Program-made: the position numbers and the translations under genes
IMG/VR virus record: IMGVR_UViG_2690316224_000006
Direction: 5' to 3' (one strand)
DNA: 7,662 nucleotides
Source: a virus
Lineage: Duplodnaviria > Heunggongvirae > Uroviricota > Caudoviricetes
Notes under the pieces: generated by a model
Databases searched by the model: none
Told to the model about the DNA's origin: nothing
What the model saw: the letters and a program-made list of their open reading frames with translations, nothing else
Shown: one piece after another, positions 3,820 through 7,662 of the stretch
Numbering within the stretch: the stretch's first letter is position 1
How the letters are laid out: each line of letters begins with the position of its first letter

Positions 3820-4209
3820 TCAGGCGGCTGCACCCGCCGGTTTCTCATACTTACTGATAGTGATCTCGACCTTCCCTTTCTGGATAACCGGTCCCCACTC
3901 CACCAGCATTCTTTTCACCTGGCTGTCGTCTTCCCACACCCCCGCGTGGGTCAGGGCGTCAAACAGCGCCTTGTTATAGTTGTCCAGATCGCGGATCCGG
4001 TTATCCGGAGGAAACAACACGATCTCCACTGAAGCAGGTGCCGACGTTGGTTTTGGCAGACGACGTAACTGCTCAACTATTGCTGCGCACGCCGCGCTCT
4101 GGAATTTGCGCCCCGCCGCGCTTATCAGGCTTTTACCAGCAAACGCCCCTTTATTAGGGTGTCGCCAGTACGTATTCACGCTGGGCGGGAAAGGTAGGAT
4201 CAGTTTCAT
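3820..4209 (-). CDS. rusA: RusA-family Holliday junction resolvase (crossover junction endodeoxyribonuclease)
   Basis: The 129-aa protein MKLILPFPPSVNTYWRH...RDLDNYNKALFDALTHAGVWEDDSQV matches the RusA family in length and in conserved acidic motifs (DLDN, D-x-L). The ATG at 4209 overlaps the upstream stop (ATGA). Confidence 0.9.
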   Translation of the reverse strand: MKLILPFPPSVNTYWRHPNKGAFAGKSLISAAGRKFQSAACAAIVEQLRRLPKPTSAPASVEIVLFPPDNRIRDLDNYNKALFDALTHAGVWEDDSQVKRMLVEWGPVIQKGKVEITISKYEKPAGAAA

Positions 4210-4532
4210 ACTTTCAGGCCTCTCTCATGTAACCAGTGGGTGGCACGCAGCCTGGCGTTTTCCTCACCGGCAAGCAGTGAGCGGATAATCCCGACCGCCT
4301 CGCTGTCATCGTCCTTCACCGCGGTATGAAGCGTTATCCCCCGGGCCACGCCACGCTTTATCGTGATGACGCCTTTTTTCTCCAGTGCGCGAAGATGCTC
4401 CACCGCTGCATTCACTGAACGGTATCCCAGCATGGTTGCCACCTCCTGATTGGTTGGCGGGAAGCCACGTTCTTTCTGGTAAGAAATCAGCATATCCAGC
4501 ACCTGCTGCTGGCATTGAGTTAACGTCGTCAT
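4206..4532 (-). CDS. LexA N-terminal DNA-binding-domain protein (108 aa) lacking the S24 peptidase / dimerisation domain
   Basis: MTTLTQCQQQVLDMLISYQKERGFPPTNQEVATMLGYRSVNAAVEHLRALEKKGVITIKRGVARGITL aligns nearly residue-for-residue in pattern with the LexA winged-helix DNA-binding domain (PPT...E.A..LG.RS.NAA.EHL.AL..KGVI.I..G..RGI.L). The protein ends about 40 aa later, with no Ser/Lys protease domain. Start and stop both form ATGA overlaps with neighbouring genes. Confidence 0.8.
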   Translation of the reverse strand: MTTLTQCQQQVLDMLISYQKERGFPPTNQEVATMLGYRSVNAAVEHLRALEKKGVITIKRGVARGITLHTAVKDDDSEAVGIIRSLLAGEENARLRATHWLHERGLKV

Positions 4533-5182
4533 GCCGCCATCTCCCTGACCAGTTTTTCCGCCTGCTGGCGAACCTGCACCAGAAAGGCTTCACCACATGC
4601 CTCAAGTTCATCGCGCCCGATGTAGCTGATTGCCGGTCCCTTCCAGGTCTTGTCGAAAACAGCAATAGCACCAGCGAAGAAAGCGCCTGTCGGCACCTGC
4701 TTCTCATCCTTCGGGATAAACCAGGCAGGCAGTTCAAAACCAATACGCCCGCGAATAAAAGCAATATGGTCCGCATCTTCCGGCCACCACACTTCGCTGG
4801 TGGCAGCTTTGATCAGGAAAACATAGCGCCCGCCCTTATCACGCATGGCACTGGCATGTTTCATGATGTAACGCATGCCGGTGATGTATTGCCCCTCATG
4901 CTGACTGGCGCGGCTGTATGGGGGATTACCAAAGGCAGCACCTTTAAGCTCCGCAAGACGTTCTGACCAGTCATGCGCCAGCGCGTTATCTTCCGCCGTG
5001 TAATACGCGGCACATTTGGCGTTATCACCGTCAGTAAACAGATCCAGAACAAACGGGCCAAACAGGGTGTTAATTCCCCAGAAAATGTTGTCCGGCGTGC
5101 GCCACTGATCGCCCACTTCCTTCAGTTCATGGGCTGGTTTGTTCCGCAGTTCCACCAGCGCCTGGCAATATTTATTACTCAT
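4529..5182 (-). CDS. phage-type DNA N6-adenine methyltransferase (Dam family, orphan; 217 aa)
   Basis: The catalytic motif NPPY (FGNPPYS) is encoded at 4916-4927. An upstream W-R-T-P motif and the overall size match the phage Dam family. The ATG at 5182 overlaps the upstream TAA (TAATG). The ORF-track form to 5215 starts further upstream and is less likely. Confidence 0.85.
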   Translation of the reverse strand: MSNKYCQALVELRNKPAHELKEVGDQWRTPDNIFWGINTLFGPFVLDLFTDGDNAKCAAYYTAEDNALAHDWSERLAELKGAAFGNPPYSRASQHEGQYITGMRYIMKHASAMRDKGGRYVFLIKAATSEVWWPEDADHIAFIRGRIGFELPAWFIPKDEKQVPTGAFFAGAIAVFDKTWKGPAISYIGRDELEACGEAFLVQVRQQAEKLVREMAA

Positions 5183-5670
5183 TAAGCCCCCACGTAATTC
5201 CCTGACAGATACCACTCTTCACCCGATGCAGCGCGCTTGCTGCTTTTCCGTAAGCACCGCTCACGACGCGCCAGAAAATTGTTTCGTTCTGGCTGGGAGT
5301 GGCTTTCACGGAATGCCGCCATCCACACGGTTGCAGCACGACGGTATAAGCCCCTGGACTCCAGTTCTTCAGCCTGGCGGATCAGGCACAAAATCACCCG
5401 TGGATCGTTAGTGCCGACATAGAAATTGCGCACAGGTCTGGTTTCTCGAACTGGTTGTGGTTCCGGTTCCTGCGCTCTCTCAGTCAGGCGCGGGAAATGT
5501 CTGCGTGTATCTCCTTCACAACGGTGAGCCACACGCCCACTCTGACGTAACTTGCTTGCTGACTGCAGAACGCGCTGCCGTGAGTAACCTGCAAAAGCAT
5601 CCGCAATGTCTCCGGAAGTACACCCCGGATGGGCTTCAATGAATTTCTGAACTTCATTCAAAAGACTCAT
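5182..5670 (-). CDS. putative PerC-family-like transcriptional regulator with an N-terminal winged-helix-like extension (162 aa)
   Basis: ATG at 5670 is preceded by AGGGGGTGATC (SD-like) and lies 2 nt after the upstream TGA. The C-terminal segment LESRGLYRRAATVWMAAF...RRERCLRK resembles the PerC/Pch conserved core as remembered. The N-terminal 60 aa look like a small HTH, joined by a Pro/Glu-rich linker. The family call is from memory only. Confidence 0.45.
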   Translation of the reverse strand: MSLLNEVQKFIEAHPGCTSGDIADAFAGYSRQRVLQSASKLRQSGRVAHRCEGDTRRHFPRLTERAQEPEPQPVRETRPVRNFYVGTNDPRVILCLIRQAEELESRGLYRRAATVWMAAFRESHSQPERNNFLARRERCLRKSSKRAASGEEWYLSGNYVGA

Positions 5671-5672
5671 GA

Positions 5673-6089
5673 TCACCCCCTGAATCCTGCCGGGATCTGG
5701 CTGTAGTCCACGTTGTCGTAACTGGCTTTGAAGTACGGGTCCTCACGTCTGGCTGCAGATACCGCAGGAACTTCCCAGGATTCTTCGAAATGACGATCCG
5801 GACCAAAGAACGTGACAGCCTGTTTCACAAATTGTGTGCCGCTGTTACCCATCGCAGATACCCAGCCCGCGTAGCGTTTCACACCTTCCAGCATGGTTTC
5901 GGGGTTTACCCCCTCATTCAAACGGGCTTTCCAGGCTTTGAAGGCTGCAGATTTTGAATTGCCACCAGCACGTTTGGGATATACCAGCCATGCCTGCTCA
6001 AACTCCGGAGAGTATTCCGGTCGGTTTGAACGAACTCGCACGGACTCATCAACTGATGCACCAACAGCTATTGGTTCATTGACTGGTTC
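5673..6089 (-). CDS. replication initiation protein, C-terminal part (same gene as 6098-6696; broken by an assembly gap and duplicated flank)
   Basis: The open frame runs from the gap to TGA at 5673-5675. Its first 38 aa (RVRSNRPEYSPEFEQAWLVYPKRAGG...NPET) repeat the last residues of the upstream fragment, so the two fragments join in frame if one 197-bp copy plus the Ns is removed, giving about 272 aa in total. Confidence 0.6.
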   Translation of the reverse strand, partial: EPVNEPIAVGASVDESVRVRSNRPEYSPEFEQAWLVYPKRAGGNSKSAAFKAWKARLNEGVNPETMLEGVKRYAGWVSAMGNSGTQFVKQAVTFFGPDRHFEESWEVPAVSAARREDPYFKASYDNVDYSQIPAGFRG

Positions 6090-6294
6090 NNNNNNNNATG
6101 GTTTCGGGGTTTACCCCCTCATTCAAACGGGCTTTCCAGGCTTTGAAGGCTGCAGATTTTGAATTACCACCAGCACGTTTGGGATATGCCAGCCATGCCT
6201 GCTCAAACTCCGGAGAGTATTCCGGCCGGTTTGAACGAACTCGCACGGACTCATCAACTGATGCACCAACAGCTATTGGTTCATTGACTGGTTC
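5893..6294. repeat. 197-bp direct duplication (5893-6089 and 6098-6294, 3 mismatches) flanking an 8-N gap; probable scaffold-join artifact
   Basis: Directly read: the two copies are identical except for three substitutions (g/a, a/g, t/c). The N run at 6090-6097 separates them. Both copies encode the same peptide, with one V/A difference. Confidence 0.9.
6090..6097. other. assembly gap (NNNNNNNN)
   Basis: Eight ambiguous bases inside a coding region. Confidence 0.95.
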
Positions 6295-6696
6295 TTTGAC
6301 TGGTTCAAAAGAGTGACTGGTTCTGGGTGAATCTCCTGCACTACCCCCTGGTGCAACTCCTGCACTACCTGGTGAATTTGCTGCACCAGATAGTGAATTA
6401 TTTGCACTACCCCCTAGTGAATCTCCTGCACCATCCAGATGAAGGAGATAGATATTACTTGAGTTACCTTTTTCACCTTTCCGGGTGACTTTTTTTACCA
6501 GCCCGGACTCACAAAGGGCCGCAATATGATTCATCACAGAACGTTTGCTAATCTCGCACTGGTCAGCAATATGCTGGTAGCTGGGCCAGCACTCACCCTG
6601 ATCGCTGGCATTATCAGCCAGCTTGATCAGAACCAGTTTTCGCAATGGATTACCCACTCGAATTTTCATCGCTTTAACCATCAGCTCCATACTCAT
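6098..6696 (-). CDS. replication initiation protein, N-terminal part (HTH domain plus Gly/Ser/Ala-rich linker), O-like initiator
   Basis: ATG at 6696 is preceded by GGAGGTGCAGC (SD) and overlaps the upstream stop (ATGA). The N-terminus LRKLVLIKLADNASDQGECWPSYQHIADQCEISKRSVMNHIAALCESGLVKK is a typical phage replication-protein HTH of the HTH_36 type. The ORF-track stop at 6076 is an artifact of reading through the Ns. Confidence 0.65.
6285..6431. repeat. iteron-like short direct repeats inside the replication-initiator linker region (candidate origin)
   Basis: TGACTGGTTC occurs at 6285-6294, 6297-6306 and 6314-6323, and again at 6080-6089 in the duplicated copy. GTGAATCTCCTGCAC occurs at 6327-6341 and 6417-6431. 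The motif TGCACTACC(CCCT) recurs at about 6337, 6361 and 6403. A moderately AT-rich stretch follows at about 6440-6480. Confidence 0.35.
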
Positions 6697-6929
6697 GCTG
6701 CACCTCCGAGATGCTTCATGTTTTTTCCGGAGCGAAAGGCTATAAGCGGCATACTGACGCGGTAATTACGGCCAAGCGGTTCACAAATCACCTTCTGGCA
6801 TTCACGGTCAACCAGGCTAACACGTAGAACATGCCCTGCAGGTGTGGTGTACCACTGCCCAACTGTAGGAATTGATATTTTTTTACGCTGAAGTAAACGG
6901 TGAATATTGAGGATCAACGGATTAAGCAT
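6693..6929 (-). CDS. small phage protein, DUF4222-like (78 aa)
   Basis: ATG at 6929 is preceded by GGAGGGCATCGTC (SD) and overlaps the upstream gene by 8 nt. Its stop overlaps the replication gene start (ATGA). The pattern G..Y....G..L.V...(9)...V...(5)...G..Y..S.P...F resembles small prophage DUF4222 proteins as remembered. Confidence 0.5.
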   Translation of the reverse strand: MLNPLILNIHRLLQRKKISIPTVGQWYTTPAGHVLRVSLVDRECQKVICEPLGRNYRVSMPLIAFRSGKNMKHLGGAA

Positions 6930-7566
6930 GACGATGCCCTCCGCTGATATTCAGGAGACGGTGAATATGAAGATTAGCCTTATCCGCCAAACGAATACGT
7001 TCAGCCTGCAAGTTAAGAAGGGTTTCTACCAGAAGTTGATGCGCCTGCGGATCTGAAAGAGTTACCTTGCGCAGAGCACGTAGTGCTGTTGTTACATAAC
7101 TGAGTTTATGTAAGTCTTCATCATTCAGACGAGTGAGGGCTGGGACAGTAGCCATGATGGCAGCCTCCTTGATCGGTGAAATACTTCCACCACCGGAAAC
7201 GCCAATTTCGCTGGTGGTGAACTGAACGGGGTTGGCGTAACCGGTGATCAAGGAAACCGGCGCATCTTTCGATGCCCCCGCCCAGCCCACCATAACTTTG
7301 ATGTGAGCAAATGCGGACGATAAAAAAGACGCTGGCGCGTCATATATCGCCTTGATCAATTCCAGGACGCCAATCCCGGCACCCGCTTTATAAGGTGCCT
7401 GAACAGTGTAACGTCCCGGAATGGCAGAATCAATGTGCTGGTGGTCCTTCACACTCAACAAAATCACGCCTGAATTTCCACAAAGGACTAAAGCACTCAT
7501 GCGGGTAGTCTTTGCGAAGATAGATAACGCGCTGTGTTTCTGGCTCCCAACGAATAACATGAACAT
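6922..7566 (-). CDS. hypothetical phage early protein (214 aa from ATG at 7566; the ORF extends to GTG at 7623); possible Rossmann-like fold
   Basis: A long minus-strand ORF in the same operon. The ATG at 7566 is preceded by GAAGAGGACTTT (SD, about 5 nt spacing), while the GTG at 7623 has no SD. Gly-rich loops (KAGAGIGV, GVSGGGSIS) and a PVSLITGYA segment give a weak resemblance to DprA/SLOG-type nucleotide-binding folds. No confident family assignment. Confidence 0.5.
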   Translation of the reverse strand: MFMLFVGSQKHSALSIFAKTTRMSALVLCGNSGVILLSVKDHQHIDSAIPGRYTVQAPYKAGAGIGVLELIKAIYDAPASFLSSAFAHIKVMVGWAGASKDAPVSLITGYANPVQFTTSEIGVSGGGSISPIKEAAIMATVPALTRLNDEDLHKLSYVTTALRALRKVTLSDPQAHQLLVETLLNLQAERIRLADKANLHIHRLLNISGGHRHA

Positions 7567-7662
7567 AAAGTCCTCTTCCGTCACTAAACCAGCGGTTAAG
7601 TTCCTGCACAACTCGCCCCCCACAGTCAGGTAAAGTTCTCTGTGGTTACTTACAGCCAGGTG

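Follow-up and report, generated by a model that had tools for sequence, protein, structure and literature searches.

A stand-alone LexA-type DNA-binding protein between Dam and RusA cassettes in the early-right operon of a lambdoid prophage

The 7,662-nt viral sequence IMGVR_UViG_2690316224_000006 (Caudoviricetes; the whole stretch is referred to below as the window) carries on its minus strand a run of genes that, by Pfam and PHROG profile matches, is a typical lambdoid prophage early-right operon. Within this run lies a gene for a 108-aa protein, here called LexA-N, which consists of a LexA-type DNA-binding domain and a short C-terminal tail and is flanked by genes for a Dam methyltransferase and a RusA-family resolvase. 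A first-pass annotation of the sequence had described these three genes as a translationally coupled trio. All three are present on the minus strand, matched by profiles and tightly packed in one operon, as follows.

5180-5184, minus strand: TAATG overlap between the stop of a PerC/YfdN-like gene and the start of Dam, read from the sequence
4529..5182, minus strand: phage N6-adenine DNA methyltransferase (Dam), 217 aa, ATG at 5182; PF05869, 156 bits
4529-4532, minus strand: ATGA overlap between the Dam stop and the LexA-N start, read from the sequence
4206..4532, minus strand: LexA-N, stand-alone LexA-type DNA-binding protein, 108 aa, stop at 4206-4208; PF01726, positions 1-65/65
4329..4532, minus strand: winged helix-turn-helix of LexA-N, residues 1-68; AlphaFold2 (AF2) helices 6-22, 28-35 and 40-52, strands 56-59 and 65-68
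4383..4418, minus strand: recognition helix of LexA-N, residues 39-50 (SVNAAVEHLRAL); hand translation and HMMER alignment to LexA
4209..4328, minus strand: linker and two-helix C-terminal tail of LexA-N, residues 69-108; AF2 helices 75-87 and 93-103
4206-4209, minus strand: ATGA overlap between the LexA-N stop and the RusA start, read from the sequence
3820..4209, minus strand: RusA-family Holliday junction resolvase, 129 aa; PF05866, 57.7 bits; phrog_34, E=2.9e-57

The annotation had placed the trio at 4206-5182, a span outside which RusA (4209..3820) falls. It had also linked the genes by ATGA and TAATG overlaps. Both junctions within the trio are indeed of the ATGA kind, and the TAATG belongs to the junction upstream, between the PerC/YfdN-like gene and Dam. 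The 4-nt overlap of LexA-N and RusA is also present in diverged lineages. Such overlaps are commonplace among phage operons and are unremarkable by themselves.

LexA-N matches the LexA_DNA_bind profile PF01726 over residues 1-65/65 (69 bits, E=2.9e-19) and, with its tail included, phrog_362 (“transcriptional repressor”; 1-108 against 1-106 of 106, E=1.1e-59). HMMER pairs residues 2-69 with residues 2-69 of E. coli LexA (PDB 1lea, E=6.9e-16), placing SVNAAVEHLRAL opposite SPNAAEEHLKAL, the two recognition-helix strings that the annotation had quoted correctly. An AF2 model built from 15 family sequences, with a mean predicted local distance difference test score (pLDDT) of 79, has as its best Foldseek match the LexA-DNA complex 3jso_B (root-mean-square deviation 1.3 Å, 68 columns, 50% identity). 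The helices of the tail are modeled with a pLDDT of ~88, the linker at 71-75 with one below 50. Four of the five residues by which helix 3 of LexA contacts DNA (Ser39, Asn41, Ala42, Glu44 and Glu45; PMC3091678, PMC13416735) are kept in LexA-N, namely Ser39, Asn41, Ala42 and Glu45, while Val44 stands in place of Glu44. All members of the tail-bearing family have Ser39 and nearly all have Asn41, and the wing-region residues held in common with LexA (Lys53, Arg64, Gly65, Ile66) are invariant. Given these profile, alignment and model comparisons, LexA-N is almost certainly a LexA-type DNA binder.

It is not LexA proper. LexA-N shares with E. coli LexA (TIGR00498) the N-terminal winged helix and lacks the S24 peptidase domain, the Ser119/Lys156 pair and the dimerization domain; its score against the TIGR00498 lexA model, 70.8 bits, is under the cut-off of 110.95. 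No match to PF00717 appeared in the Pfam scan, and tblastn searches with full-length LexA and with its C-terminal domain found no S24 protease in any frame of the window at E<=10. The sole match of LexA to the window was 4532-4263, corresponding to LexA 1-86. A cryptic protease domain was rejected, as nothing was found past LexA residue 86, and no cryptic frame restoring a full-length LexA turned up. The description of the middle gene as a LexA DNA-binding domain without the autocleavage and dimerization domain is therefore upheld.

The two-helix tail is specific to this family and is kept in relatives that are only 38-47% identical (profile search of 1.84 billion representatives). Among 65 distinct alleles of the Enterobacter lineage, the winged helix has a ratio of nonsynonymous to synonymous substitution rates (dN/dS) of 0.20 and the tail one of 0.19, and both parts are therefore under purifying selection. 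HMMER pairs a stretch of the tail, RSLLAGE (4263-4283, residues 84-90), with the LexA cleavage-site stretch GRVAAGE, Ala-Gly included, and this stretch may be a vestige of the LexA linker. Cleavage at LLAGE is not proposed, since the Ala-Gly pair is not kept in relatives (LLAKEE, LLANEE, LLVGEE, MIDDQP).

The region is widely distributed. Positions 3820-5676 of the window are 99.8% identical to Stx2c-converting phages (Stx, Shiga toxin) and ~97% identical to Stx2a phages and to phages mEp460, 1720a-02 and SKA5, and the LexA-N protein is 97-98% identical in SfV, SfII, SfIV and cdtI. The gene is found in 2233/5426 complete E. coli genomes, with at most four copies per genome, and intact LexA-N open reading frames (ORFs) occur in hundreds of loci, with divergence down to 38-47% identity. 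Relatives with a named source come from Cronobacter, Kosakonia, Enterobacter, Cedecea, Klebsiella and Salmonella, all of them hosts within the Enterobacteriaceae. Proteins that are 96-100% identical bear the NCBI/PGAP name “LexA family transcriptional regulator”, and the mEp460 copy, mEp460_046, is recorded as “LexA DNA binding domain protein”. The arrangement is thus real, very common (~40% of E. coli genomes, Stx2 phages included) and already annotated; it is not new as annotation. LexA-N is an abundant, already annotated but uncharacterized member of the phage-encoded stand-alone LexA DNA-binding domains. A preprint on phage 1720a-02, which carries the LexA-N module, names Cro as the source of prophage interference and leaves the LexA-N gene aside.

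Some GenBank and RefSeq records label LexA-N “SOS-response repressor and protease LexA” or “RecA-mediated autopeptidases”; both labels are at odds with its lack of a protease domain. Several proteins among P0128, P0130, P0137 and P0143 contain two LexA_DNA_bind domains in tandem, and these may be single-chain dimers.

The reading that we put forward, tentatively and with less than even confidence, is that LexA-N is a delayed-early regulator, insensitive to RecA, which binds LexA-box-like DNA and acts at SOS-box-type promoters. LexA-N would most likely be made only after prophage induction or infection, within the long rightward early transcript. We infer this delayed-early timing from the position of the gene in the operon, the packing of the genes and the absence of a dedicated promoter, no sigma-70-like promoter having been found on the minus strand over 5676-3820. 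The protein would bind LexA-box-like palindromes with two winged helices side by side, as in LexA; the tail could supply or stabilize dimerization, and the preference for the base that residue 44 reads would be changed. LexA-N would then regulate SOS-box-type promoters in a RecA-insensitive manner at a time when host LexA is depleted, and candidate targets are host SOS genes, the dinI-like gene of the phage itself and those functions of rival elements that LexA controls.

The domain content establishes that DNA damage cannot inactivate LexA-N, because it has neither a Ser/Lys protease nor a RecA-responsive domain. In this it resembles the products of lexA(Ind-) alleles, which likewise cannot be switched off by RecA. 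The N-terminal fragment of host LexA (residues 1-84) has the same fold as LexA-N and is ~50% identical to it. The fragment, however, ends in a ClpX-recognized ...VAA tail and is degraded, whereas LexA-N continues for ~24 more residues into the conserved two-helix tail and has Val at position 44. A whole-phage scan for SOS boxes covered the LexA-N-carrying phages mEp460, 1720a-02 and SKA5, and in all three a strong tandem pair lies at the dinI-like gene. Free of the rest of LexA, its N-terminal domain still binds SOS boxes and represses to some degree, and the fragment therefore has to be removed by ClpXP (PMC10584840). Action of LexA-N at SOS promoters is plausible because this free domain represses in part and because LexA-N phages carry strong SOS boxes, and mimicry at the SOS box by LexA-N is plausible as well. 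The first-pass annotation had suggested that the protein could occupy SOS boxes non-inducibly, which the four retained contact residues favor, or interfere with host LexA. Interference by heterodimerization is unlikely, because the dimerization domain is missing from LexA-N.

Several observations weigh against this reading. The conservation of contact residues, which the annotation had expected an alignment to bear out, holds for the four positions given above and breaks down at position 44, where the tail-bearing lineages examined have V, A, T, F, L or Y and in no case Glu. In the same profile search, 9 of the 18 best-matching C-terminally extended sequences have EE or ED at positions 44-45, as do most shorter matches outside the tail family; the check for S24 domains covered only a few of the extended sequences. 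Helix-3 positions 42-46 read AAVEH, TIAGH, AATDM, AAFEH, AVLLH or TVFIH depending on the lineage. So far as is known, Enterobacteriaceae share one SOS box, and as the hosts are all Enterobacteriaceae, this variation means that no single fixed host site can be the one to which the whole family is tuned. The specificity of LexA-N need not equal the host SOS box, and the data lower the odds that it reads the canonical box unchanged. In addition, no functional study (DNA-binding or reporter data) of the enterobacterial LexA-N family was found in the searchable literature.

The distribution of SOS boxes points the same way. Candidate sites were scored with a position weight matrix built from known SOS-box sites, with a reporting threshold of 8 and real sites scoring at least 12.9. 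By this matrix the best site in the window reaches 9.8, short of the 12.9 or more that real SOS boxes score. The only exact CTGT-N8-ACAG in the window, at 7640-7655, lies within a coding region, has poor flanks and scores below 8, and SOS boxes of the window were rejected as targets for this reason. One-mismatch versions number 6 against 3 expected, a count reached by 10/200 shuffles. In the related phages, SOS boxes travel with the cI, dinI and late-methylase modules and not with LexA-N, and SKA5 carries LexA-N yet has the dinI pair only. As these three LexA-N-carrying phages show no consistent association, the SOS boxes of phage genomes were rejected as LexA-N-specific targets.

Near-perfect extra SOS boxes are found at 31970 and 41021 in mEp460 (locus L082) and at 39531 and 31556 in 1720a-02 (locus L288). 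In these phages the extra boxes lie within the coding sequence of the cI repressor and across codons 3-9 of a late-region DNA methylase gene. The mEp460 genome has 5 exact CTGT-N8-ACAG sites, compared with 0.7 expected.

It is also possible, if doubtful, that LexA-N is a phage-specific transcription factor with an operator of its own, unrelated to host SOS boxes, and that its LexA ancestry extends to the fold only. Such a factor may activate a later promoter, and a precedent exists in gp6 of GIL01, a tectivirus of Bacillus thuringiensis. This 66-aa truncated LexA homolog binds near the -35 of the late promoter P3 and activates it (PMC6182141); as a truncated LexA that acts as a regulator, it is equally a phage precedent for the reading put forward above. 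GIL01 gp6 is the closest characterized analog of LexA-N and is alike in outline, but it belongs to a different family: it has no helical tail and derives from a Bacillus-type LexA, whereas the 108-aa LexA-N has the tail and is of enterobacterial-type LexA origin. BLASTP gave no alignment between the two at E<=100, and they are independent truncations of LexA. The site and the activator role of gp6 were shown experimentally, while LexA-N is known here from sequence and model only. A private operator would fit the family-wide loss of Glu44 and the differences in helix 3 among lineages with hosts in a single bacterial family, as well as the faster divergence of LexA-N relative to RusA (45-52% identity where RusA keeps 63-79%). 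On the other hand, the repeat scan near LexA-N gave no convincing palindrome or operator, the overlapping genes leaving zero intergenic space. Moreover, the commonest helices (AAVE, AAAE, AAFE) differ from LexA at residue 44 only, and Ser39 and Asn41 rank with the best-conserved columns.

A bolder version of SOS-promoter control, which we consider unlikely, makes LexA-N a RecA-proof LexA mimic that re-closes SOS-box promoters once the phage is induced, silencing host SOS functions together with the LexA-controlled antirepressors, colicins and dinI-type genes of competitors. Residue 44 and the tail would in this case confer higher affinity or a shifted site preference. Should LexA-N bind SOS-type operators, a sizable fraction of the prophages in E. 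coli, Shigella and Salmonella would be equipped with a switch freeing SOS-controlled promoters from RecA in lytic growth. Shiga-toxin phages would be among them, with a bearing on competition between prophages and on the behavior of Stx phages after antibiotic-induced DNA damage.

The association of LexA-N with RusA is close in most lineages. Among 80 IMG/VR loci with a 99-100% identical LexA-N protein (the near-identical set), RusA is directly downstream of LexA-N in 80/80. The counts for more distant types, with RusA downstream either directly or within 300 nt, are as follows.

Enterobacter type: 78/80 loci
Kosakonia type: 15/15 loci
Klebsiella/Cedecea type: 10/33 loci

Where both genes are present they co-diverge (Spearman 0.72). 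The counts of the near-identical, Enterobacter and Kosakonia sets and the co-divergence, with the 4-nt overlap, are what would be expected if LexA-N were a DNA-binding accessory of a recombination or nuclease module, one that loads, targets or restrains RusA or the DUF968 HNH protein and has no part in transcription. P0148, in which LexA_DNA_bind is fused to a C-terminal DUF968/HNH domain, also fits this proposal, but it is a singleton, one sequence on one contig. We nevertheless regard such a role as improbable. Phages ST64B (Salmonella) and YeP2 (Yersinia) share the backbone PerC-Dam-RusA-KilA-N-DUF968-Q, with no trace of LexA-N; relative to the window their Dam is 70% identical and their RusA 80% and 61% identical, respectively, and Dam and RusA overlap by 4 nt. 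Phage records hold RusA-family genes in 335 cases and LexA-N in 63, and 21/33 loci of the Klebsiella/Cedecea type have the order LexA-N-orf67-DUF968 without RusA. RusA works as a homodimer and is not known to need partners, which also counts against an accessory.

On the other side of LexA-N, the slot just upstream appears to be an insertion hot spot for methyltransferases, which belong to four unrelated Pfam families across lineages:

PF05869: the Dam of the window
PF02086: D12 enzymes, some of them fused to a C5 enzyme
PF05063: MT-A70 enzymes
PF00145: C5 enzymes

In loci L083-L211 this slot is ~350 nt upstream of LexA-N, and the C5+D12 fusions are 600-800 aa long.

A role for LexA-N in controlling or cooperating with the adjacent methyltransferase, like the controller protein of a modification system, is very improbable. 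In three lineages, 55/80, 66/80 and 11/15 loci do have a methyltransferase no more than 350 nt upstream of LexA-N. The variety of enzymes is, however, better explained by the hot spot, and LexA-N is downstream of the methyltransferase and not upstream. Within the near-identical set Dam is present in 55 loci, absent from 24 and undetermined in 1, and in the 24 Dam-less loci the PerC gene runs directly into LexA-N with no methyltransferase of any kind; ST64B and YeP2, conversely, keep the same Dam without LexA-N. These patterns of presence and absence largely refute a controller role. They also tell against the trio as a functional unit, as do the substitution of other methyltransferase families and the Klebsiella/Cedecea-type loci that lack RusA. 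Most simply read, the backbone is conserved and contains a hot spot for methyltransferases, and LexA-N is itself a dispensable cassette, usually co-inherited with the overlapping RusA. Dam and RusA, on either side, are independent cassettes within the operon they share with LexA-N and are not its partners. This independence of the three genes is one point clarified here; the others are that several GenBank records wrongly annotate LexA-N as a “protease LexA” and that loss of Glu44 marks every family lineage examined.

That LexA-N is a decaying, functionless remnant of a captured lexA, as its truncation and the pairing of LLAGE with the VAAGE of LexA might suggest, is barely credible and is refuted by the dN/dS of ~0.2 across domain and tail, by the intact gene in so many complete E. 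coli genomes and in lineages as distant as 38% identity, and by the conservation of the family-specific tail.

The Dam protein scores 255.6 bits against TIGR01712 (cut-off 97.05, profile positions 1-165/165 covered), matches the PADLOC MTase_II profile across 1-217/217 and has the catalytic motif NPPY in its translation (FGNPPYS). Neither the Pfam nor the PADLOC scan of the window found a restriction-system nuclease, and the neighbors of Dam are the PerC-like and LexA-N genes. As predicted from its sequence and surroundings, Dam is an orphan methyltransferase, as the annotation had supposed, and a facultative cassette. Membership in a defense system was rejected, as PADLOC returned methyltransferase matches only. 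Among phage orphan Dam enzymes of PF05869/TIGR01712 (HP1, T1, Stx-phage Dam), that of the window is alike in its full-length match above the equivalog cut-off, its NPPY motif and its lack of a restriction partner, and no notable difference separates it from them. The target of this family is GATC. In some GenBank and RefSeq records the Dam gene is misnamed “phosphoadenosine phosphosulfate reductase”.

The RusA protein passes the gathering score (57.7 bits vs 22.8) of PF05866, the family also matched by the RusA proteins of phage 82 and the DLP12 prophage, and its acidic motifs DLDN and EDD sit at what we take to be the catalytic positions. It is ~40% identical to phage 82 Rus and scores 73 bits against the E. 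coli K-12 RusA model NF007305, for which the cut-off is 200; for these two reasons it is assigned to a different subfamily.

The remaining genes of the operon are listed in order of transcription.

~6696-5673, minus strand: DnaD/O-like replication gene, broken by a run of N
5182..5676, minus strand: PerC/YfdN-like protein, 164 aa; PF06069, E=9.8e-9; phrog_1324
3848-2991, minus strand: KilA-N protein, downstream of RusA in the same operon
2989-1994, minus strand: DUF968/HNH protein, downstream in the same operon
2022-1228, minus strand: antiterminator Q, downstream in the same operon

The PerC/YfdN-like gene is a conserved backbone gene upstream of Dam. In this SfV/mEp460/Stx2c-type lambdoid prophage, LexA-N has the replication genes on one side and Q on the other, in a region comparable to the nin region of phage lambda.

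The replication gene is divided into the mechanical ORFs 6076-6696 and 5673-6041 by an 8-base run of N (6090-6097), which is flanked by a 197-nt direct duplication (5893-6089 vs 6098-6294, 98% identical). The N-run and duplication together look like a scaffolding or assembly artifact. Iteron-like direct repeats of 19-39 nt (GTGAATCTCCTGCAC...) at 6326-6434 within the same gene probably constitute the phage origin. Upstream of the replication genes, Rfam matches on the minus strand identify a C4 antisense RNA at 7210-7297 (82 bits) and IsrK at 7322-7398 (64 bits), both within a mechanical 233-aa ORF (6922-7623). Because of these two matches, the region 6922-7623 is suggested to hold a P1/P7-type antisense-RNA antirepressor control module rather than a single long protein.

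Downstream of Q, ORF 522-947 encodes a 141-aa protein with a lipoprotein-like signal peptide and a match to phrog_4748 (unknown function). It is flanked by a 24-nt terminator-like repeat (AAAAAAACCGCTCAGYGGCGGGTT, 92% identical) at 421-444 and 1098-1121, and the ORF with its flanking repeats looks like a moron cassette.

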